Assembly (NCBI GenBank): GCA_032251315.1
Contig: JAVVEE010000006.1
Span: 1 to 49,679 of the forward strand
Direction of reading: 5' to 3'
Source: Gammaproteobacteria bacterium
GTDB lineage: Bacteria; Pseudomonadota; Gammaproteobacteria; SZUA-229
Length of the DNA: 49,679 bases
Shown here: positions 21,532 through 45,866 of the stretch, in pieces
Position numbering within the stretch: position 1 is the stretch's first letter
Layout of the letters: every line of letters begins with the position of its first letter
Notes under the pieces: generated by a model
What the model was told of the DNA's origin: nothing
The model's input: the letters and a program-made list of their open reading frames with translations, nothing else
Database searches by the model: none
Program-made: the position numbers and the translations under genes

Positions 21532-22143
21532 TTATGCAGAGCGCTTTTTCAGCTGCCGATCGTGCAGCCTGCTCAGCGTAATCAAAGCGGCAACCGCGCC
21601 GAACAGCGCCCAGCCCATGTCGGCCTGGGTATCCCAGACATAACCCTGTGTTCCCAGAAAAGCCTCCGCCGCCTCCTCGCTCAGCAGTGCCACCCCCCAT
21701 TCAACCAGCTCGTAAAAAGCGCTGAACGCCAAGCAGAATGAAACAACAAAAAACGACTGCCAGAGCGCACCGTTGATAATATTTTTTCGCAGAATAATTT
21801 CGCGCGCAATCAGCGCCGGCACGAAGCCCTGCACAAAATGGCCGAGCTTGTCGTAATCGTTGCGGCTGGAACCGAAGATGTCCCTGATGCTATCGAACAG
21901 CGGCACTTCCGCATAAGTGTAGTGCCCGCCGACCATGAGAATAATGGCGTGAATCAAAATCAGAAAATAGACCAACGGCGTCAGCCGGAAAGCGTGGTAG
22001 GTGAACGCCAGCACAACGAATCCGATAATGGCCGGCGAGACCTCCAGAAACCAGGTGAGCTGATCCTTGGGATTGATACCCGACCAGATTAGAACAAATA
22101 AATAAATGCTGACCCAGAGATGTTTGATGATGGTTTTTCTCAA
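21532..22143 (-). CDS. DUF2238 (YjdF-like) membrane protein
   Basis: TWFLE, GGHYTYAEVP, RNDYDKLGHF, YELVEW, FLGTQGYVWDTQADM. Confidence 0.85.
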   Translation of the reverse strand: MRKTIIKHLWVSIYLFVLIWSGINPKDQLTWFLEVSPAIIGFVVLAFTYHAFRLTPLVYFLILIHAIILMVGGHYTYAEVPLFDSIRDIFGSSRNDYDKLGHFVQGFVPALIAREIILRKNIINGALWQSFFVVSFCLAFSAFYELVEWGVALLSEEAAEAFLGTQGYVWDTQADMGWALFGAVAALITLSRLHDRQLKKRSA

Positions 22144-22549
22144 GCTAAAAATGCCGGTGCTGAGCGCCGATGGGAATTAAGTATATTGTCGTAGCTTAAA
22201 CTTGATAAGGCTCAATGGCTATAAATTACGAGATGACCTGACGCTGTTTTAGAGGGTCATGCCTTCAGCTTCCATAAAACAGACCTTTGATATTTTTATT
22301 TTAACTGGTGATTTCGGCCAATAGCGGACGGTCAAAGGTTTTTACTCTGATCTCAAATTACTAATAGACCCGGATACTTATATCTCCTGAGTCACACTAT
22401 TGCTTGAGTAATTCAAGACGGCAAAATCTTCCTCAAGGAGGGCGGGATCAGGAGTAAAGGCTATCTTTCCGAGTGTAGCCAGTATTGCTGCTTCGTCGAA
22501 TCGCCTTGAAATATAGGAAAACTTAATCAATACTCGTTCTTTTTATCAT

Positions 22550-22981
22550 TTAGCTCTTCAGCTTACTTATTGTACTCATGAGAAAATCCCTGCTTTCTTT
22601 ATCTTGCAAAACATCTTCAAGCTCACGCATGCACTCACCAAAGCCTGTTTCATCTTCTATAACCTCAACTATGAGGTCACATACCTCGTTTGGTAAATTT
22701 TTTATCAGCGCATTCTTCAGATATCTATAAGCATATAATTCTTCATGATCCTCGTCCCAATCCTCACTGTCAAAGCTTTTATCTTCTAATTTCATCCAGA
22801 GTTCATTCGCCAATGCATTATGTGGTCCATGTGGTTCCTCAAAACTTTTCTTATTAAGCCGCTCCATCAGAAAATAATAAATACCTCGTTCTGCGTTTTC
22901 TGTCGTCAGATCTGGTTTTAATGTGGATTCAGCCATATCTAGGTAATCAATTACCTTTTTAATTGCTTCCTCAGATGCCAT
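22550..22981 (-). CDS. Acidic hypothetical protein
   Basis: AT-rich ORF starting 1 nt after the stop of the DUF697 gene. Confidence 0.65.
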   Translation of the reverse strand: MASEEAIKKVIDYLDMAESTLKPDLTTENAERGIYYFLMERLNKKSFEEPHGPHNALANELWMKLEDKSFDSEDWDEDHEELYAYRYLKNALIKNLPNEVCDLIVEVIEDETGFGECMRELEDVLQDKESRDFLMSTISKLKS

Positions 22982-22982
22982 T

Positions 22983-23534
22983 TTAGAAGGCGCGGAAATC
23001 GTCCTTTTTTTCTTTTACTTCGTCTTTGGCCTTCTTGGCTTGTTCTTTGCCTTCCGCACGAAATTCTTCCCACATTTTTTTCAGATCAGCATTGTCGATA
23101 GATTGGCCTTTGGATTTCTTTTCAAGGTAATAATCCATAATGCGGCCGATAGCATAGGTGAGTCCGTAAACTAATGGGATTGTGGTGAAGCCAGCAAGAC
23201 CTGGTAGCCCGACCTTGTACAATCCCAGCGCAATCTGCTGTGCAGCCATTCCCAATCCGACAATTCCAGCAATCTCCTTCAAGAGATCTGTGGCGTCCGC
23301 TTCAGAAAGCGGTATTCCCCTAATCGCACTGAGTCGCACGCCCATGTATGCTTGAATTGGTGTGAGCACAAAGATATCCGCAAACGGAATTGGTTGTACG
23401 GCGACCGCAGCACAGGCAACTGAAAAAATGTGAATAATCCGAGACCGCTTCTCATCATCGGAAAGGTCGGTCCGATTCTCGATGTCGGTGATTTCAATCT
23501 CAATCTTTTTCTTCACTGTTTTTATGACATTCAT
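22983..23534 (-). CDS. DUF697 (YcjF-like) domain protein
   Basis: AAVAVQPIPFADIFVLTPIQAYM...TYAIG signature. Confidence 0.75.
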   Translation of the reverse strand: MNVIKTVKKKIEIEITDIENRTDLSDDEKRSRIIHIFSVACAAVAVQPIPFADIFVLTPIQAYMGVRLSAIRGIPLSEADATDLLKEIAGIVGLGMAAQQIALGLYKVGLPGLAGFTTIPLVYGLTYAIGRIMDYYLEKKSKGQSIDNADLKKMWEEFRAEGKEQAKKAKDEVKEKKDDFRAF

Positions 23535-23606
23535 TACATCTTATCCTGACTTTTCACTGCGTATCGATTACATGTTATTTAAGAAAAATTTCAAGCACAT
23601 TTTATT

Positions 23607-24203
23607 CTATTCTAAGTTTTTACTATTACGAAATGCAGTAGGCCAAAATCTAGGATTTCGACTACGCTCAAGACATATATCGTCTTGGTAGCTACCAACC
23701 ATGTGGTAAAAAGAATTTGGAACCACTAAACATGATCCACAGTTAGGACATGTGATATCTTTTCGATTCTGAAATGATTGAAGTTTTTTGTCCGCGTCTC
23801 TGGTTAAATATAAGCGTATTTTCAGTGCGAAAATTTTATTCCTCATGTACTCAGCAATATCGGGATTGTCATGCAGGTCTTTTTCAAATTCTGGATCTGG
23901 TTCTGGTGTAATATCTCCTCCGTACGAGACCGATCTAGAGGTACAATTCAGTATAATTTTGTGTTTAGAGTTAGGGTGGCGGTTGAACAGTTCCTGTATT
24001 TTCATGAGCATTTTCCGTTCTTCATTGAATTGATGTGCTGTCGTAGCTCCTATCAATGCTATTTTGGTATCATCTGATACATTCGATAAATCCCCATAAT
24101 ATTCACAGCTAGAACAATCTACGGGGATTGTTTTGAAATTTAATATTCCTCTGCTTGGGTTTGCTATCGACATTGTTGCTTCCTCTTTTACCTCTAAATA
24201 CAT
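23607..24203 (-). CDS. Hypothetical protein with two CxxC motifs
   Basis: CSSC and CPNC; AT-rich ORF; GAGG before the internal ATG (MSIAN) suggests an alternative start. Confidence 0.6.
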   Translation of the reverse strand: MYLEVKEEATMSIANPSRGILNFKTIPVDCSSCEYYGDLSNVSDDTKIALIGATTAHQFNEERKMLMKIQELFNRHPNSKHKIILNCTSRSVSYGGDITPEPDPEFEKDLHDNPDIAEYMRNKIFALKIRLYLTRDADKKLQSFQNRKDITCPNCGSCLVVPNSFYHMVGSYQDDICLERSRNPRFWPTAFRNSKNLE

Positions 24204-24319
24204 ACTTTGGGAATAATTTTATTCTCGGAACACAGGCCCACTATGCTTGACAGCTTTGCTATTTTTAATCATAGAAGCAGCGCATCTTCTCTACCTTCTT
24301 GACGATTTCAAAAATATAC

Positions 24320-24949
24320 TCATTCAGAAAAGTAGTCATAGTTGGCAAGACCGGTCTCATTTTGTGTCATTTTTTCTAGTACCGTCATCAATCGTAAAGT
24401 CCCGTATGTTTCAAAAGTCACTTCAGATTTATTGGACTTGAATGTAGGAGTAGACTCAAAATCAAATATAGATGATTCATCAGCAAGTTCAGTAATAACC
24501 TCCCATGAAGAACCAAGTCCATTTCCATCAAAAGCACCTGGTAAAACACCTAAACAAGCCACATGTTTTGATAGTTTCTTAGAGATTTGAACGAGAATTT
24601 GCATCATTGCCATCGAATACCTTGTTCCATCAGAAAAAAAGTATAATTTTTCTTGGGGAATAGTTTTTATATAAGTCTCCAATAACTCTAAATGTTCATT
24701 AGTGATTATATCTACAGCCGATATATTAGCTGGAAAGTTTACGCCACCACCTAAATAAGACCCAATCGTGATTGAACGTCTAATTCGTACTTCTATATCT
24801 ATTGAAAGATTATCTAACGATGGAGGTGTTTTTTTATTTTCGTGCGAAAAAATACCAACTAAAGCAGGGTTCGTGATTTTTTTGAATGAACATTCACCAA
24901 TAGTATATTTTGCAAGGTAGTTCATCATTCTATTACTTGCCCTCCACAT
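24320..24949 (-). CDS. Hypothetical protein, possibly a degenerate FtsZ/tubulin GTPase-domain homolog
   Basis: AT-rich 209-aa ORF with segments that align by eye to the FtsZ N-terminal domain (see findings). Confidence 0.5.
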   Translation of the reverse strand: [209 protein letters not shown]

Positions 24950-25155
24950 ATTTTGTTTGCGAAAAAGATTGATCTATAGTCATATGATATTAATTCTTTT
25001 AAAACCATAGTATATAGGGGTTTTCAATCAGAAGCGGCAGTCAGCTGTTGAAATTCACTTCTAAAAGCCGATATTCAACGCCAGGCTCATGCATTAGCGT
25101 TAAGTACCATTCGGCTTTTACCCTTTTAAAGCTCTTTTTTTCAGTCGAAATTTCT

Positions 25156-25464
25156 TTAATATGTCGCGCAGTTCATTCCACCACCGTAAGTTCTGTAGCA
25201 GTTTGTATTTTTAGTTTTATATTGCTGTTGTTGCCTTTGTTGATTGTGTTGGTACATTTGCAGTTGTTGATCAGTCATAGCTGCGCGCCAGCCAGTCTCA
25301 TCTCCGTTACTATTTATACACATGATTTTATCTTCAGTGTACTGCCTTGCTCGAACACAGTTTGAATCACCGGCCATATAATATTTGCCATTATAAAAAT
25401 TTGGCATAGCGCTTGCGCAGCCCGCCAATATAATTACTAGAAACAACAGTGAGATATTTTTCAT
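25156..25464 (-). CDS. Small lipoprotein on an integron-cassette-like unit
   Basis: Lipobox LAGC, AAGGAG RBS, GTTAAGTAC upstream and GTACTTAAC downstream on the coding strand. Confidence 0.75.
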   Translation of the reverse strand: MKNISLLFLVIILAGCASAMPNFYNGKYYMAGDSNCVRARQYTEDKIMCINSNGDETGWRAAMTDQQLQMYQHNQQRQQQQYKTKNTNCYRTYGGGMNCATY

Positions 25465-25685
25465 ATTTACTCCTTATTTATGTACTTAACCATGTTTATG
25501 TTACTTATATCTAATGTTTAGGGTGATGGGCGAGACGTCCGGAGCGTCCTAGTTGACCCAATAGTGTACACCCAGCATGGGCATGAACTAACGAGGAAAG
25601 CTTCACAAACAATAAACAGACTTCCGAATATACCAAGCAACTTTTGATCCTGTATTACCTTCATAACATCCGACTTAATGTCCAT

Positions 25686-26069
25686 TTACTTTTTTATAAT
25701 AAAGATTTTAATATTAACTTTTTTAGAAATACGGTTAATACGTTTTAAATAGCGATTATCGTTTTCACCGACAATCAAAGCAACGCCTGCCTTTTTGTCG
25801 GTCATATCTGCATAAAACAACGATTGACCAATACTCTCAGCCCATTTTTTTGCCCAATCAACTTCAATTGCATATTCATCTGTCAAACAATCAACTCGAG
25901 TTCTATCTGGTAAGATAAACTCAGTAACACCATTCACCTTTTCACAAAACTGCACCTGGTAATATGCTTCATTTTTTTTAATCGGAATCTTATCTTCCAT
26001 TGATGAAGAAAGCACGACAGCTGTAGCAAGGCAAAATGACAGGAATAGTATTTTATATTTTTTTCTCAT
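25686..26069 (-). CDS. Secreted or membrane-anchored PD-(D/E)xK nuclease-fold protein
   Basis: N-terminal signal/TM segment; LPDRTRVDCLTDEYAIEVDWAKKWAESIGQSLFYA. Confidence 0.6.
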   Translation of the reverse strand: MRKKYKILFLSFCLATAVVLSSSMEDKIPIKKNEAYYQVQFCEKVNGVTEFILPDRTRVDCLTDEYAIEVDWAKKWAESIGQSLFYADMTDKKAGVALIVGENDNRYLKRINRISKKVNIKIFIIKK

Positions 26070-26126
26070 AACATCACTTGTGAATTCATGAATACTTCAA
26101 ACGCAGTTTTTACTTTATTATTGCGA

Positions 26127-26489
26127 TTAATCATCAATCGTTAATTTATTTTGTGATAAGGTTTTTAATTTTATCTGCTTTATTCTTTTATCCAAAGCAT
26201 CCTCTTTCTGTTGTTTTTGAAATTCTCGCATTCCATTTTCAACACCATCAACAAACTCTCTTTTTAGATCAGCGGCAGCCACTATTGCTTTTGGTGCATT
26301 GCTTACGACGGCTGATGTAGTCCTAAAAGCTAATCTGGTTAAAGAACCGCTCAGATTTAAAACACTTTTTATAACACCTGTTTTTGTTTCTTTGTAATTA
26401 ATCGCATCATCGATACAACTTTCTAAATCGCCAATAACGTCTTCAACGCCGTTTGTAACTTCACTCCAGTCATTACGGTTATTTTTCAT
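26127..26489 (-). CDS. Hypothetical helical protein
   Basis: GAGG RBS, 120-aa AT-rich ORF directly downstream of the IS1380 end. Confidence 0.6.
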   Translation of the reverse strand: MKNNRNDWSEVTNGVEDVIGDLESCIDDAINYKETKTGVIKSVLNLSGSLTRLAFRTTSAVVSNAPKAIVAAADLKREFVDGVENGMREFQKQQKEDALDKRIKQIKLKTLSQNKLTIDD

Positions 26490-26531
26490 TTTGCACCTCT
26501 TGTATATTTCTGTAATATCATTTCACTTTCT

Positions 26532-28193
26532 CCTGAATCCGTAACTTATCGTGAGCATTCGCTCTCCCCATATCATTTCAGAAAAACCCATCAAAGCCAA
26601 AGCATGTTTTGCACCTGATAAAAGTATTTTTAACCGGTATTCTTCAAAAATAATTGAAAATCATAACAGCTGACTGTTTTTGGCCGATACCTGCCCGTGT
26701 TGCCACTGTTACGCCGGCAAACGATGCGCAAGGAGGGTGTTTTGTTATCCGTAAGCCAGTTTTTTATAGACAGTACTGAAGGCACAAAGCGATCGGCAAC
26801 CTTTTCCAAATGACAGCTTTATCGAACGCGATGTTTTGATAATACGCGCAGCGACATACATCAGTTCCTGCATCACTGTTTTAATCCGTCGTCTTTTGGC
26901 TTTGTTTCGCTTTGGCGAGTCGGCACCCAGTAGGCCGTTTTGGCCAATCCAGCGCAGAATATTGTAGGCCAGCATGCTGGCACCCAATATCAGTGCATTG
27001 GTGGCGAACTTGCCCGAGGGTAGGCGCTCGATATCCATGTCTGTTTTGAATTCGCTGTGGAACTGCTCCGAGGTCCCGTGATCGGCGTAGAGTTTTATCA
27101 CCGCGTGTTCGTCGAGCGACAAACTGGTCCACCAGCCTTCCAGTTCAATCTCCGGCGTCAGCAACATCTGCCCATTCTTGTCGATGGTTCGTTCAATCAG
27201 GCGCATCACACGCCGTACTGTGTATTCATAGCCTTTCCATTGCCGCTGGTGCTCAATGCTGAACAGCGCTACACGCTTGCCGTCACGCGGCGCCACCCAG
27301 CAGCCGTGCTGCTCGGCATAGGCCAGCCAGTCGTCTTTGCTTTCCTTGCGGGGGTTCCACTTGATCAAAAAGTCGACCGGCACTCGGTCTGCGAAGGCCT
27401 GATTGTGTTCGAGGACAACGTCAATATTTTCAATCGAGTCATTGCCGCCATCAAGCCTGAGCAACAAGGGCTGATCGGTGATTTTACGGCTGTGACACAA
27501 GACCCGTTCTAACAGGGCCGGGGTGTCCTTCTGACAATGTTGTTTACCCTCGCGCAATTCCAGTTCCAGGCAATAGCCCTCTTGCCCCAGATAAGCCGGC
27601 ATCGGGGCGTAGCCATCACACCCTTTGTAGGTTCTTGATACCCCTTCTTTGCGACTGCCACTGTTATCCATGGGCGTGACATCCGCATCCAGCGGAATAT
27701 GTCCGGTTTCCAGGGGTTCAAGCGTGGGTTGAATATTGACCAGGAAATCCAGATTCGCCTTTTCGACGAGAGGTAAGAACGTCCTGGCATGGTTGTCCAT
27801 GCGCTGGCGCAGGGTCGCTTCGCAGGGGATAGTGTTGATATCCATGGCGCTCATTAAATAGAATTCACTTTCGATGGTGTTGATGGACTCAAAATCATTC
27901 TTGCCCAGGCACAGCATGGCGAGATAACTCTTCGCCACATCGGAATGCTTGATGCCGTGACGCAGTGGAATTTGCGTGTCGATCTCCTGCGTAAAATTTG
28001 TGTAACGTTTTACCGCTTGACCAACAAGGGCCAGGCCACCATGGCTGATGATATCAGCATCCGATCGTTCAATTTTAAAGCGCTTCATTATTCACTCACC
28101 AGGTGATTTATTTAGAGTAGATATTTTAGCAAAATAGGCTGTAAATTACGGTATTAAAGGCTTTTTTTGCAGGTTTTAAGTTACGGATTCAGG
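26532..28193 (-). mobile_element. IS1380-family insertion sequence, apparently intact (1662 bp)
   Basis: Perfect 17-bp terminal inverted repeats CCTGAATCCGTAACTTA (26532-26548) / TAAGTTACGGATTCAGG (28177-28193) around a single transposase. Confidence 0.9.
26745..28088 (-). CDS. IS1380-family DDE transposase
   Basis: SHGGLALVG, LDADVTPMDN, TYKGCDGYAP, RLDGGND, YADHGTSEQFHSEFKTD, LPSGKFATN. Confidence 0.92.
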   Translation of the reverse strand: MKRFKIERSDADIISHGGLALVGQAVKRYTNFTQEIDTQIPLRHGIKHSDVAKSYLAMLCLGKNDFESINTIESEFYLMSAMDINTIPCEATLRQRMDNHARTFLPLVEKANLDFLVNIQPTLEPLETGHIPLDADVTPMDNSGSRKEGVSRTYKGCDGYAPMPAYLGQEGYCLELELREGKQHCQKDTPALLERVLCHSRKITDQPLLLRLDGGNDSIENIDVVLEHNQAFADRVPVDFLIKWNPRKESKDDWLAYAEQHGCWVAPRDGKRVALFSIEHQRQWKGYEYTVRRVMRLIERTIDKNGQMLLTPEIELEGWWTSLSLDEHAVIKLYADHGTSEQFHSEFKTDMDIERLPSGKFATNALILGASMLAYNILRWIGQNGLLGADSPKRNKAKRRRIKTVMQELMYVAARIIKTSRSIKLSFGKGCRSLCAFSTVYKKLAYG

Positions 28194-28206
28194 AATAATA
28201 AATAAT

Positions 28207-28800
28207 TTATTTTTTTGTAATGATAGACATATTTAGCTTACCCTTTATATTCTGATATTCATTCATGTTAAGTAATCGCCCGCTACCTTCTGCTGAAGCA
28301 CCCTTTTCATCAACATATAGACTTGCCATTAATATTGTAATTCCCTTATTAGAAATAATAATATCTATATTGTGACCCGCATAATTAATAAGCCCCCTCT
28401 TCACTTTTTCTATTTTATTTTGGATAGGAGATAAATAAATATCAATTTCATCTTTCATACCAATTACTTTCCAAATTTCTACAACAAAGCCTTCATTACT
28501 AAAACCTATAGGAGTTGAAAACCATTCTCCAAGTGATTGACCAGCAGCCGCTAACAATTCTACGGATTCAAAGTTTTCTACATTCTTTGAGTTTTGGTTT
28601 TTTAAAGTTTCTAAGACAACTACATCAGCTTTTGTCGGTTTCTTGGGTGTTTTTACTCTAGCAAGTAAGTTATTCAGTTCATTTTGAAGTTCATTAGGAA
28701 TTTCTTTAGAAAGCTCGATTTTTACTTCTTTCTCTAGCTCTTGCATAATGTCTTCTTCATGCAATCGTATAATATCGCTTGTTATGTCATGCTTTTTCAT
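28207..28800 (-). CDS. Hypothetical protein translationally coupled to sigma factor (candidate anti-sigma/partner)
   Basis: ATGA overlap with the upstream sigma-like gene; helical N-terminus, ELLAAAG linker, beta-rich C-terminus, no TM segment. Confidence 0.6.
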   Translation of the reverse strand: MKKHDITSDIIRLHEEDIMQELEKEVKIELSKEIPNELQNELNNLLARVKTPKKPTKADVVVLETLKNQNSKNVENFESVELLAAAGQSLGEWFSTPIGFSNEGFVVEIWKVIGMKDEIDIYLSPIQNKIEKVKRGLINYAGHNIDIIISNKGITILMASLYVDEKGASAEGSGRLLNMNEYQNIKGKLNMSIITKK

Positions 28801-29468
28801 GAATTCACCTCGTTTTCTACCATTTGTTCCTGTAAAAACTGGATTTGTTCGTGAGGGTTAATTACTGTTATTCCATGAGGTTCAGTGCATTTTGATACTT
28901 TCTCAATAAGCCTATTCAATGCGTCTGTAGGATTACTTGTTTTATAACCAATGAATTGAGCTAAATCTTTGATAGATAAACCGGTATCATTTTGCCACCA
29001 AAATGCCGTAACAAAGAATTTTTGTCGTGCAGTATCTTTAATTCCATTGTAAACACAATCAAAACATAACTTAATCCACTTATATGCAACTGTGGCATCA
29101 ATAATACCGTCTGGTGTTAATGCATCTACATTTTGTTCAAAGTCGCCAACAATCTCATCCATAGATACGTTATGAATATTCTCATACTTATTATTAGATT
29201 TTAGCCTCTCAGCCTTTGTGAGATTCCTAATAACACCGAGACCTCTGAGTTTATCAATAAAACAATTATGTACCGTTCTATAGATATATGATTTACGACC
29301 AGTATGATCCTGTTTCTTAAAGAAGCCACTCTCAAATAATTTTATAAACGCCTCATGAGCAACATCTTCCTCAATATCCATATGATCATAAAATGATCGA
29401 TTCCTTATTGAACTAGCTGTTTTCTTTATTAATAAGAAATATTCTAGCATTTCCTTATCATCACTCAT
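28797..29468 (-). CDS. Divergent sigma-70/ECF-type RNA polymerase sigma factor
   Basis: Region 2-like EEDVAHEAFIKL...KSYIYRTVHNCFIDKLR and region 4 HTH-like GLSIKDLAQFIGY. Confidence 0.7.
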   Translation of the reverse strand: MSDDKEMLEYFLLIKKTASSIRNRSFYDHMDIEEDVAHEAFIKLFESGFFKKQDHTGRKSYIYRTVHNCFIDKLRGLGVIRNLTKAERLKSNNKYENIHNVSMDEIVGDFEQNVDALTPDGIIDATVAYKWIKLCFDCVYNGIKDTARQKFFVTAFWWQNDTGLSIKDLAQFIGYKTSNPTDALNRLIEKVSKCTEPHGITVINPHEQIQFLQEQMVENEVNS

Positions 29469-29745
29469 TCATAGATACCGCTCTAATATGCTGAATTATA
29501 TAGTTATTTTTGTAGTCGATAATATTTACTTAAATATTTGTTAATCCTATCGGATTTGACTCGTTTTACTTTTTAACGATGGCTCATTAACATCAATCAT
29601 AATTAACTTTTAGTTAGACTAAACAATGGTTTATATCACAAATTCTAGTGAAAAGTAGATAATCAATAAATGAATTCTGAGGATACAATACTTAATTACA
29701 TGTATTATCAGCCTTCGGCCTGGTTTTTTCTTTTTCAAATCTTTA

Positions 29746-30742
29746 GTAACTATTCAGCACATTTTTTTCAAAAAAGTCAAAAAATTGCTTGACAGGGTTT
29801 TTGCGCGATTTTGTATTTTTAAGCGCCATCACCAAGTCCATGTGAAACCCATCGCCAAGCGCCATGCACTGTCACCGTGGCTGCGCTAGTACGCCGTGCC
29901 GTGTCCGGCCATATCCGTCTCATGGAAAACGCCGTCAGCGCGCGCTCAGGGCCAAATTATTCATCTCAAAAAGTCATGCGATAATAGTGTCACGCAAAGC
30001 CGCTTCGGTACTGAGATTGTGACACTTGACTCCATCGACATTAAGGCAGCCATTGAGGCTGTCGAAAAACAACTGCAAGAAGATAAGCAGACTTCGGTTG
30101 CCATGAAGTCGGCGGTGTCTCTGGTGCTGATTGTCGTGAAGCTGTTGATGGCGCGCTTGGGCATAAATAGTCGTAACAGCAGCTTGCCACCCGCCAGCGA
30201 TCCGAATCGTGCGAAAAAACAACGCGGCCTCAATGGACGCAAGCCCGGCGGTCAGCCCAATCATAACGGCAGCACACTGAAACCGGTCGATGATCCGGAT
30301 GACATTCGCACCATCAACATCGATAAGCGAACCTTGCCTGCGGGCGATTATCAGGTGGCTGGCTTCGAGCGCCGACAGATCATCGATCTGCGCATTGAGC
30401 GTTATATCACCGAGTTTCGCGCGCAAATCCTGGAGAATACGCACGGCCGGCGTTTCGTCGCCAAATTCCCGGCGGGCGTGACACGTCCGGCTCAGTATGG
30501 TGCTTCGGTCAAGGCCAATGCGGTTTATATGTCGATGTTCCAGTTGATCCCTTATGAGCGTGTGCAAACACACTTTGCCGAAAACTTCGATCTGCCGATC
30601 AGCACCGGCACCTTGACCAACATGAATCGCGACGCTTATGAGCGCCTGGCGATCTTCGAGGTGCTGGCGAAACAATGTCTGACGCGAGAGGCCGTTGTTC
30701 ACGCGGACGAGACCGGCATCAACGTCGGTGGCAAACGGATCT
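29746..30742 (+). mobile_element. IS66-family element (single-ORF type), 3'-truncated
   Basis: Left end GTAACTATTCAGC at 29746; GC-rich transposase fragment; no right end seen. Confidence 0.8.
30019..30742 (+). pseudogene. Truncated IS66-family transposase
   Basis: NSRNSSLPPASD, RKPGGQPNHNG, YGASVKA, VHADETG; similarity stops after GGKRI, before the rest of the DDE domain. Confidence 0.85.
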
Positions 30743-41149: not shown

Positions 41150-43387
<2,238 letters not shown>

Positions 43388-43518
43388 AATGAAAAAATCA
43401 GTATCGTAACTGGAGGGTGAATAAAGGTTAAACAGGGCTCACGATTCTACTGGAAATTGAAGCCGGTGATACGAACACAAATTGATAAAATAACCTGCAG
43501 TTGCTATTGACAATAGAG

Positions 43519-44048
43519 TTACCCCCAAAACCTGTGGATAACTCTGTGTGTAAAAGCTGAGTAAGCGCCTCTAACGACCGTATTTCATGACATTGTAACA
43601 ATTTGGTTAAAGTTTGATCAGGTAAATTTGTAGTTATTAAACAGAGACTTACAAGTTATGGCTCTATTATTACAGTGTTTATTGCGGATCTGTCTGAACA
43701 AAAAGGCGCACTAATCTGGTATGTGCATAAGTCCGTTTTAGTGCATGCTTCTTAGCGCGAAAAGTTAAAAAATTTTCTAGGAAAAGTGATCTAACTCCTT
43801 CAAAATAAGGGAAATACCTGAGTTACCCACATATTCTGTGGATAACTTTGTGGATGATAAATTTTTTAAGCTGAAAAACAGGTAAAAAAGCGCTAATTTT
43901 GTTAGATTGTGCAAAAAATAACCACATAATATATTGATACAAATTTCAATAACTTAGAGTTTGGCGAGTCAGGTTTTCCGGTGGATAACTACGCGCTACG
44001 AAGGTATCATTGGACTATATAAGTGGATCATGATTTGGTTGTGCACAA
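43519..44048. promoter_or_regulatory. DnaA-box cluster: two tandem DARS-like modules with Fis-like and IHF-like sites
   Basis: Cores TTACCCCCA-n5-TGTGGATAA-n3-TGTGTGTAA (43519-43553) and TTACCCACA-n5-TGTGGATAA-n3-TGTGGATGA (43823-43857); further boxes at 43722, 43980 and 44040. Confidence 0.75.
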
Positions 44049-44172
44049 CTCACCGGAAAGTTAGTAGTCATTACAGTAAGTTAGGCAATATCAACCATTG
44101 TAATAATGTCGTAATACAGCCAAAAAAGCTCACTGTTTGAAGTGTTGAAATAGTAAAAGATAGTTGGCAGTG

Positions 44173-44203
44173 GTAGGTTGGTGGTGAGGCACGAACCCCA
44201 ACA
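44173..44203 (+). repeat. GTAG-type REP-like hairpin
   Basis: GTAG followed by gttggtggt...accccaac imperfect palindrome. Confidence 0.55.
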
Positions 44204-44292
44204 AAATGGTTAAAAGATAGTTGGCAATTGGCAGTCATCAGTTGGTAGTAAAAGCCCGGGCTCCGGAAAAAACTTACAGACCAGCACAAAAT

Positions 44293-44331
44293 GCCCCCTC
44301 TCCTTTTGGGAGAGGGCTGGGGTGAGGGGGC
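44293..44331. repeat. BoxC-like palindromic repeat, copy 2
   Basis: gccccctctccttttgggagagggctggggtgagggggc. Confidence 0.65.
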
Positions 44332-44411
44332 TTTAAAAAGCGCATTCAGCACGTAAAATCCCCAAACTGCCAACAAACAACCGCCAACTTCCTTTAAAGA
44401 GGCCCGATCCC

Positions 44412-45290
44412 ATGCAACTCCAGCAACATATCGAAAACCAGATTGAACTGGCGACCGGCGAACCCTTCCATATCACCAGTCAGCAGGATGTGGGAGGCGG
44501 CTGCATCAACACCAGCACACAGATCAGCGACGGCAAGCGCCACTACTTCATCAAAACCAACCACCGCCGCCACGCCGCCATGTTCGAAGCAGAAGCCGAA
44601 GGCCTGCGGGCCATGGCCGACACCAACACCATAAAAGTACCGCAGCCAATCTGCCACGGCGAACATGGCGAGCAGTGCTACATCGTCATGGAACATCTAC
44701 AACTGGGTGGTCGCGGCGACAACACCCTGTTTGGCCGACAGCTGGCCGCCATGCACCGCCACACCAGCGAGCAATACGGCTGGCACATCGACAACACCAT
44801 CGGCGCCACGCCCCAGCCCAACCACCCGCACCACGACTGGATCGAATTCTGGCGACAGCACCGCCTCGGCTTCCAGCTCGACCTGGCCGCGCGCAACGGC
44901 TACGGCGGCAAACTGCAGATCCTGGGCGAACGCCTCATGGCCGATTTCCCCGCCCTGTTCAAAAACCACCAGCCCGAAGCCTCCCTGCTGCACGGCGATT
45001 TATGGAGCGGAAACTACGGCGCCCTGCCCGACGGCACCCCGGTCATCTACGACCCCGCCTGCTACTACGGCGACCGCGAAGCCGACCTCGCCATGACCAC
45101 CCTGTTCGGCAGCTTCAGCCGCGACTTCTACACCGCTTACAACGAAGCCTGGCCACTGGACGACGGCTACCCGCAACGCCGCACCTTCTACAACATCTAC
45201 CACATCATCAACCACACCAACCTGTTCGGCGGCGGCTACCACGACCAGGCCATCAGCATGATGGAGCAGGTGCTGGCGGAGTTGGGTTGA
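44412..45290 (+). CDS. Fructosamine kinase family protein
   Basis: GGGCIN, FEAEAEGL, DNTIGATPQ, LLHGDLWSGN, DPACYYGDREADLAM. Confidence 0.92.
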   Translation: MQLQQHIENQIELATGEPFHITSQQDVGGGCINTSTQISDGKRHYFIKTNHRRHAAMFEAEAEGLRAMADTNTIKVPQPICHGEHGEQCYIVMEHLQLGGRGDNTLFGRQLAAMHRHTSEQYGWHIDNTIGATPQPNHPHHDWIEFWRQHRLGFQLDLAARNGYGGKLQILGERLMADFPALFKNHQPEASLLHGDLWSGNYGALPDGTPVIYDPACYYGDREADLAMTTLFGSFSRDFYTAYNEAWPLDDGYPQRRTFYNIYHIINHTNLFGGGYHDQAISMMEQVLAELG

Positions 45291-45373: not shown

Positions 45374-45640
45374 ATGTATTGTTTTGAATATGACGATAAA
45401 AAGAGTGCTTCAAATTTAAAGAAGCACGGCATTGATTTTGTTATGGCGCAGGGGCTCTGGAATGACCCTGACCTTATCGAGATACAGGCAATATCAAATG
45501 ACGAGCCCCGTTTTTTGATCATTGCTTCCCTGGCTAACAAAATCTGGTCAGCAGTCATCACCTATCGAGGTAGCACTACTATTAGAATAATTTCAGTCAG
45601 GCGCGCCCGTAAAGCGGAGGCAGCAGTTTATGAAAGCTAA
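45374..45640 (+). CDS. BrnT-family ribonuclease toxin
   Basis: FEYDDKKSASNLKKHGIDF, EPRF, IRIISVRRA. Confidence 0.9.
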   Translation: MYCFEYDDKKSASNLKKHGIDFVMAQGLWNDPDLIEIQAISNDEPRFLIIASLANKIWSAVITYRGSTTIRIISVRRARKAEAAVYES

Positions 45641-45866
45641 AGATTTTGATAAAAAATTTGATGACAACAAAGCAGATATTATTGATGATCTTGATCTGTC
45701 TACTTTAAAAAAGCCAAATCAGATACAGAAGAGAGTCAATGTTGATTTCCCTGCATGGGTAATAGAGTCTCTGGATAAAGAAGCCAGCCGGGTTGGTGTG
45801 ACGCGCCAATCAATAATCAAGCTCTGGTTAGTGGAACGGCTGGAGGAGAAGGCGGCGAACAAATAG
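45630..45866 (+). CDS. BrnA/CopG(RHH)-type antitoxin
   Basis: MKAKDFDKKFD...KRVNVDFPAW...GVTRQSIIKLW; overlaps the toxin stop. Confidence 0.85.
   Translation: MKAKDFDKKFDDNKADIIDDLDLSTLKKPNQIQKRVNVDFPAWVIESLDKEASRVGVTRQSIIKLWLVERLEEKAANK

Follow-up and report, generated by a model that had tools for sequence, protein, structure and literature searches.

DnaA-reactivating sequences (DARS) are a key part of the DnaA cycle of Escherichia coli. Its two sites, DARS1 in the bioD-uvrB intergenic region and DARS2 in the rppH/ygdT-mutH intergenic region, carry a three-box DnaA core in a head-to-head layout, whose 5-bp spacer and conserved spacing are stated in PMC6868365. Here we analysed the 1024-bp spacer between the divergent genes priA and frk (fructosamine-kinase family) of a gammaproteobacterium, in which a core of this kind occurs twice. 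The window is the whole 49.7-kb contig C6 (JAVVEE010000006.1; 49,679 nt) of the host genome G000 (2.56 Mb, 152 contigs), whose close relatives are metagenome-assembled genomes of uncultured 'Gammaproteobacteria bacterium'. Comparative sequence analysis indicates that the priA-frk region is probably a DARS2-like DnaA-reactivating locus of two modules in tandem, and not an origin of replication.

For the comparison with E. coli, the bioD-uvrB and rppH-mutH spacers of strain K-12 were fetched and scanned for patterns. The DARS1 core consists of TTATCCACT, 5 nt, TGTGGATAA, 3 nt and TGTGTATTA, and the DARS2 core of TTATTCACC, 5 nt, TGTGGATAG, 3 nt and TGTGAAGAA; deletion primers given in PMC4585315 confirm the identity of the latter. 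The core search pattern TTATNCACNNNNNNTGTGGATANNNNTGTG, with up to two mismatches allowed, matched the 4.64-Mb K-12 chromosome at two places, DARS1 and DARS2, whereas the reversed pattern used as a control matched none. The three-box layout that a first-pass annotation of the window had given for DARS1 is therefore right, as verified on these two sequences and in PMC6868365.

Beyond the core, the two E. coli sites differ. In DARS2, with offsets here and below counted from the core start, IHF sites lie at +93 on the reverse and +109 on the forward strand, with the published gap of 3 bp; their position relative to the core matters, and shifting it lowers activity (PMC4245941). A Fis site position of about +185 to +210 was deduced from motif scans together with the published text, and a further DnaA box (box V, forward) follows at +211. 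For DARS1, which PMC11724364 describes as needing no protein activator, a motif scan found no IHF-like site within 420 bp after the core. The statement in the first-pass annotation that the DARS sites of E. coli occur singly should be qualified, because at +316 the DARS2 region has another core-like triplet, a degenerate one (L049 3452-3486; TTATCCCAG, 5 nt, TGTGGATAA, 3 nt, GGTG) with three mismatches to the search pattern. The start of this triplet is followed at +119 by a perfect IHF consensus (L049 3571-3583), an offset as in the modules of the host family described below. The triplet may be what is left of a second module, in the right half of DARS2 that was dispensable in a plasmid assay.

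A search of the host genome with a regular expression for the full three-box layout returned three places, cores A and B in the priA-frk spacer and a site at C23:18367-18401, and the reversed-pattern control returned none. The two cores of the window are as follows:

43519..43553, box I on the plus strand, boxes II and III on the minus strand: core A, 9-5-9-3-9 layout, kept in 7/7 genus genomes
43519-43527, plus strand: core A box I, TTACCCCCA, followed by a 5-nt spacer
43533-43541, minus strand: core A box II, TGTGGATAA, followed by a 3-nt spacer
43545-43553, minus strand: core A box III, TGTGTGTAA
43823..43857, box I on the plus strand, boxes II and III on the minus strand: core B, near-invariant in the genus alignment
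43823-43831, plus strand: core B box I, TTACCCACA, followed by a 5-nt spacer
43837-43845, minus strand: core B box II, TGTGGATAA as in core A, followed by a 3-nt spacer
43849-43857, minus strand: core B box III, TGTGGATGA

The cores start 304 bp apart, and both were found in the sequence where the first-pass annotation had placed them, with its 5-nt and 3-nt spacing. Spacers of 5 bp and 3 bp are common to DARS2 and both host modules. The layout of DARS1 is identical as well; its box II with flanks, CTGTGGATAAC, is the same string, and its box III (TGTGTATTA) is close to that of core A (TGTGTGTAA), although DARS1 is a single copy and the host locus a tandem. When the window was scanned with the DnaA-box form TTATCCACA (printed form TT[A/T]TNCACA), 16 boxes with at most one mismatch were found against 9.3 ± 2.8 expected, six of them within 43533-43988. 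The priA-frk locus, with six boxes, is the densest 600-bp DnaA-box window of the 2.56-Mb genome, and such windows hold at most three elsewhere. When 43800-43960 was compared by BLASTn with all complete E. coli genomes, four weak hits (E of at least 2) were obtained, none of them at DARS sites.

The third core of the host genome (C23:18367-18401) is a single one, flanked by metH and a gene for an ABC-F ATPase. An IHF-like site follows it at +122, a Fis consensus is absent, and single cores of this type also occur in the genus genomes G003, G004 and G006.

Accessory sites were sought with the IHF consensus WATCARNNNNTTR (printed form TAAnnnnTTGATW) and the degenerate Fis consensus GnnYAnnnnnTRnnC, which gave, together with the genus alignment, the following features:

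43440..44085, no strand: conserved non-coding element with both modules, blocks visible in the 7-genome genus alignment
43605..43619, no strand: Fis-like palindromic 15-mer of module A (+86), perfect consensus, outer G and C kept in 7/7 genus genomes
43639..43651, plus strand: IHF-like 13-mer of module A (+120), one mismatch to WATCARNNNNTTR
43664..43680, no strand: conserved block of the genus alignment with no assigned role, similar string in G083
43722..43730, minus strand: distal DnaA box of module A (+203), one mismatch, kept in 7/7 genus genomes
43909..43923, no strand: Fis-like 15-mer of module B (+86), perfect consensus, within block 43901-43924, which is near-invariant in the 6/6 genus genomes reaching there
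43927..43939, minus strand: second IHF-consensus 13-mer of module B (+104), perfect match, partly kept in the genus
43944..43956, plus strand: IHF-like 13-mer of module B (+121), one mismatch in the host
43980..43988, minus strand: distal DnaA box of module B (+157), one mismatch, kept in 6/6 genus genomes
44039..44048, no strand: conserved DnaA-box-like palindrome TTGTGCACAA, two mismatches on either strand

The module delineated in this way is a predicted unit of about 210 bp, in which the core is followed at +86 by a Fis-like palindrome, at +120 by an IHF-like site and at about +157 to +205 by a reverse DnaA box. The Fis-like 15-mers, IHF-like 13-mers and distal boxes all stand where they had been reported earlier. 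The CAR-N4-TTR core of the module-A IHF-like 13-mer is kept in 7/7 genus genomes, and by our reading of the alignment the module-B site is a perfect consensus in four of the five other genus genomes reaching there. Outside the motifs, modules A and B aligned with a score of -40 versus -41.3 ± 6.8 for shuffled sequences; because this lies within the shuffle range, there is no residual similarity between them. As the offsets are nevertheless conserved in the relatives, the earlier observation of conserved spacing without conserved sequence holds.

Comparison within the genus showed that the span 43504-44084 is about 70% identical to five same-genus genomes and 84% identical to G006, with discrete conserved blocks at every proposed site and further blocks of no assigned role at 43444-43460 and 44057-44084. 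The two cores lie 304 or 305 bp apart in all six same-genus genomes with the locus. The description of the region as free of open reading frames (ORFs) is correct in substance, in that none is kept open across the genus, but not to the letter, as the conserved part of the spacer contains four small ORFs of 39-59 aa; stops in their own frames occur in 4/6, 5/6, 5/5 and 5/5 readable relatives. No Rfam family matched.

In the host family, the core pattern was present in 90 of 97 genomes, including 44/44 high-quality genomes and 19/19 genera, while the reversed control matched a single genome. Among the matches listed, same-strand tandem pairs occurred in at least 12 of the 19 genera, with spacings falling into groups of 304-305, 314-316, 344-347 and 358-362 bp. 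The internal architecture was tested on one genome per genus for 12 genera of this family, giving 23 modules with enough downstream sequence; kinship inflates the counts from this set, and the intervening sequence differs widely between genera. A forward IHF-like site was found at +119 to +121 in 19 of the 23 modules (best reversed-motif control window, 3-5) and a Fis-like site at +84 to +87 in 15 (best control window, 2), the latter appearing across genera as a conserved palindrome, TGGTTA-N5-TAACCA. A reverse DnaA box lay at +150 to +230 in 22 of the 23, and a forward one in none. Among 13 representative genomes, the distal box of module A was at +201 to +204 in 11, at +213 in one and absent in one. 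Length variation in the arrays sits between the distal box and the next core. The check by alignment of relatives that the first-pass annotation had proposed thus showed both modules and their internal offsets to be conserved.

Across the class, the core pattern was found in 263 of 301 sampled genomes (259 of 297 without the four unpublished genomes in this tally), and the reversed control matched two genomes. The same internal offsets recur in arrays of other families, in G192, G381, G248, G352 and G164. G192 has two units 356 bp apart beside argS-priA. G381 has three units, 325 and 323 bp apart (G381:C206:51221-51898), each with a reverse box at +192 to +194, and in G248, G352 and G164 the spacing is 325, 315 and 423 bp; none of these four arrays lies beside priA, so the array is a unit in its own right and no mere accessory to that gene. 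By hand calculation, the inter-core spacings of 304 to 423 bp are not all near whole helical turns. The synteny argS-priA-array-frk is common to genera g1, g33 and g15, and no core was found near 18 more distant priA loci. The proximity to priA noted at first is genuine as argS-priA-tandem synteny in the host family and one other family, but gives way to other contexts elsewhere; a functional link to the replication-restart gene, as had been suggested, is not needed, since similar arrays occupy other gene contexts in four further families.

GC skew, which had been proposed as the check for the true oriC, placed the switch at dnaA and gave the same sign on both sides of the tandem in three genus genomes. 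Skew in the host genome is strong and contig-wide, with a mean absolute value of 0.062 in 5-kb windows. The flanks of the tandem gave the following values, the right flank in G002:C7 (865 bp) being too short for skew:

G000:C6, left +0.037 over 43.3 kb, right +0.033 over 5.2 kb
G009:C24, left +0.125 over 34.8 kb, right +0.130 over 10.4 kb
G001:C3, left +0.118 over 69.8 kb, right +0.081 over 5.7 kb

On host contig C3, mnmE-yidC-rnpA on the minus strand are followed by dnaA-dnaN-recF-gyrB on the plus strand, and the sign of the skew changes near dnaA, with only 9 kb of contig to the left of that gene. The switch lies at dnaA in 3/3 long same-genus contigs (G009:C96, G001:C12 and G002:C8). In G083, which belongs to another genus of the same family, a 587-kb contig (C3) carries both dnaA and the tandem. 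Its skew is negative from 1 to 100 kb and positive from 100 to 400 kb, with the switch around 95-101 kb and the cumulative minimum at dnaA (94.2-95.6 kb), and the tandem at 267.7 kb lies in uniformly positive skew, 173 kb from the dnaA switch. The priA-frk locus is not oriC, which is excluded for practical purposes.

The gyrB-ubiD spacer of G083 (C3:101040-101585, at 101.2 kb and the skew minimum) contains six DnaA boxes, four of which form a same-direction array, and is the probable oriC of that genus. No counterpart of this cluster was found in the host genome, where gyrB abuts ubiD; for this reason the host oriC is probably at rpmH-dnaA or dnaA-dnaN, and the dnaA-dnaN spacer there contains two perfect DnaA boxes. 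G076, which is listed as a single 2.8-Mb contig (C1), changes from minus to plus skew at most about 10 kb from its tandem. However, its skew sign changes repeatedly over 40 sampled 20-kb stretches, and a 200-kb segment was colinear with the first 400 kb of G083 C3 only over 2511648-2520740, about 9 kb round the locus. We set G076 aside as skew evidence, because the record is a mosaic, apparently of contigs joined end to end, and no safe basis for replichore analysis, which makes its switch uninformative.

Beyond the core, the host tandem shares several features with DARS2. IHF sites, predicted ones in the host, lie about 100-120 bp after the core start in both (DARS2, +93 and +109; host module B, +104 and +121), and a further DnaA box is found near +200 (DARS2 box V, +211; host module A, +203). 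A second core-like triplet follows about 300 bp downstream in each case (DARS2, +316; host, +304), but both host cores are strong and conserved, unlike the second triplet of DARS2. Both loci are non-coding and outside oriC. They differ in their neighbours, which are priA and frk in the host and mutH for DARS2, and in the origin-proximal position of the tandem in G083, unlike that of DARS2.

Two other E. coli loci also invite comparison. Like the tandem, datA is a cluster of DnaA boxes outside oriC; its single IHF site has IHF-like counterparts in the tandem, and it modulates the DnaA nucleotide state (PMC4245941, PMC11724364), as the tandem is predicted to do. It is not matched by the DARS core pattern, and it promotes ATP hydrolysis, not ADP release. 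The dense DnaA boxes with IHF-type and Fis-type sites recall oriC, but the tandem lies away from the skew switch, and its head-to-head triplets contrast with the same-direction arrays of the probable G083 oriC.

A duplicated DARS-like locus, probably dependent on nucleoid proteins, is the best-supported reading of these comparisons, and we favour it with moderate confidence. By analogy with DARS2, Hda-dependent hydrolysis, the RIDA route, would yield ADP-DnaA, which would assemble head-to-head on the core. The IHF-like site lies about midway between the core and the distal box, so an IHF bend could fold that box, with protein bound nearby, back onto the core complex. ADP would then be let go, and the freed DnaA could rebind ATP; two modules might double the capacity or make the response cooperative. 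The host genome encodes Hda (260.1 bits; equivalog cut-off, 194.8), both IHF alpha and IHF beta above their cut-offs, and HU. Host DnaA is 62.7% identical to E. coli DnaA and keeps Lys178, Arg285, Leu290 and Arg334. The earlier proposal of regulation by nucleoid-associated proteins finds support in that IHF alpha/beta, Hda and a Fis-family protein are encoded, and is less secure for Fis, whose binding is predicted from a degenerate consensus at a position unlike that in DARS2.

Several observations weigh against this reading. The host distal box is in reverse orientation, opposite to the forward box V of E. coli DARS2. The host Fis-like site at +86 lies between the core and the IHF-like site, whereas the essential Fis-binding sites FBS2-3 of E. 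coli lie, as deduced from motif scans and the published text, beyond IHF and by box V, whose cluster they overlap; no conserved Fis consensus was found in module A near +185 to +210. The Fis-family protein of the host scores 97.3 bits, just under the equivalog cut-off of 99. In G083, whose genome measures about 4.5 Mb, only 173 kb separate the tandem from dnaA, a position nearer to the origin-proximal placement of datA on the E. coli map than to that of DARS2. Only 2 of 52 similarly arranged box pairs of E. coli proved to be DARS, according to a review (PMC5835720).

The last of these points concerns DnaA itself. DARS-dependent ADP release in E. coli needs Gln208 (PMC6868365), a residue of the head-to-head contact, which in host DnaA is replaced by Gly, likewise in G083 and G076; the requirement is established for E. 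coli only, and Leu290, also used there in the DARS reaction, is kept in the host. In a class sample of 30 DnaA loci from other families, 27 of which were readable, position 208 was Ala in 21, Ser in three, and Gly, Val and Gln in one each; DARS-type cores were present in 26 of those 27 genomes, G026 having none. The E. coli interface is not simply transferable. This leaves two options, another way of making the head-to-head contact in most of the class, or cores that act unlike those of E. coli.

The chief alternative is a DnaA sink, datA-like or purely titrating, which with IHF would lower free or ATP-bound DnaA after initiation without any recharging. In its favour are the locus being the densest DnaA-box cluster of the genome, the conserved IHF-like sites and the absence of Gln208 from host DnaA, and the tandem of G083, 173 kb from dnaA, is origin-proximal as datA is in E. 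coli. We nevertheless consider it unlikely, because the three-box head-to-head layout is the DARS signature, the E. coli pattern matching DARS1 and DARS2 only and neither datA nor oriC, and titration does not need strict 5-bp and 3-bp spacers.

Somewhat less likely still is a main role in DnaA-, IHF- and Fis-dependent transcription control of the divergent priA and frk promoters. The locus does lie between divergent genes, in an order kept as argS-priA-tandem-frk in g1, g33 and g15 and as argS-priA-tandem in G192 of another family, and in E. coli DARS1 overlaps the uvrB promoter and DARS2 the mutH promoter (PMC5835720). However, arrays of the same layout occur in other gene contexts in four further families (G381, G248, G352 and G164), and about 650 bp of conserved architecture far exceeds the needs of a promoter. 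A promoter scan found two promoter-like sites versus 2.3 expected from shuffles, nothing above chance. That the locus is oriC or a second origin is very improbable: it is the densest box cluster, AT-rich and furnished with IHF-like and Fis-like sites, the host dnaA region has few boxes, and G076 has a skew switch at most about 10 kb from its tandem, but the skew keeps its sign across both flanks in G000, G001 and G009 and switches at dnaA in G009, G001, G002 and G083, where the tandem is 173 kb off, and G076 is a mosaic of unstable skew sign whose colinearity with G083 spans only about 9 kb.

A duplicated, DARS2-like reactivating locus at priA-frk would place a DARS-type control element, in the form of a conserved tandem array, well beyond the close relatives of E. 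coli. In the text consulted, PMC8682772 confines its analysis of DARS2 homologues to seven 'E. coli-proximal' species, and no description of tandem DARS arrays or of DARS at priA was found in the literature searched, where the term 'DARS-like' turned up in one paper (PMC6090056). Our data extend this picture to a core in most sampled genomes of the class and a two-module array with fixed IHF-like and Fis-like offsets in the host family, most such lineages lacking the DnaA residue needed in the E. coli reaction. They offer a testable picture of initiator recharging outside the model organism and bear on the right half of DARS2 in E. coli, for which there is as yet no explanation. A broader and more doubtful proposal, which we put forward tentatively, is that the unit of about 210 bp is an ancient DnaA-recharging module widespread in Gammaproteobacteria and natively tandem (2-3 units, about 300-360 bp), giving cooperative, switch-like recharging through a Gln208-independent interface. 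E. coli DARS2 would then be a decayed two-unit array, with its right half the remnant of the second unit.

The genes flanking the spacer, with argS beyond priA, are as follows:

41150..43387, minus strand: priA (primosomal helicase), left neighbour, with Pfam PriA_3primeBD, PriA_C, Zn_ribbon_PriA and DEAD domains
44412..45290, plus strand: frk (fructosamine-kinase family), right neighbour, Pfam Fructosamin_kin, E 1.2e-111

Between the conserved element and frk, positions 44150-44360 of the window consist of dispersed short repeats resembling repetitive extragenic palindromic sequences or miniature inverted-repeat transposable elements. They lie outside the conserved element and include a GC-rich hairpin (44296-44316) as well as a 16-nt direct repeat whose copies are at 44154 and 44211, and many copies are scattered over the host genome and its relatives. 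Elsewhere in the window, positions 22000-30000 form a low-GC island (GC 0.33-0.41 versus about 0.55 elsewhere) with reversed GC skew, which is probably horizontally acquired DNA. The stretch 45374-45866 holds a gene for a BrnT-family toxin (Pfam BrnT_toxin) with a small ORF after it, and the two are likely to be a type II toxin-antitoxin pair.

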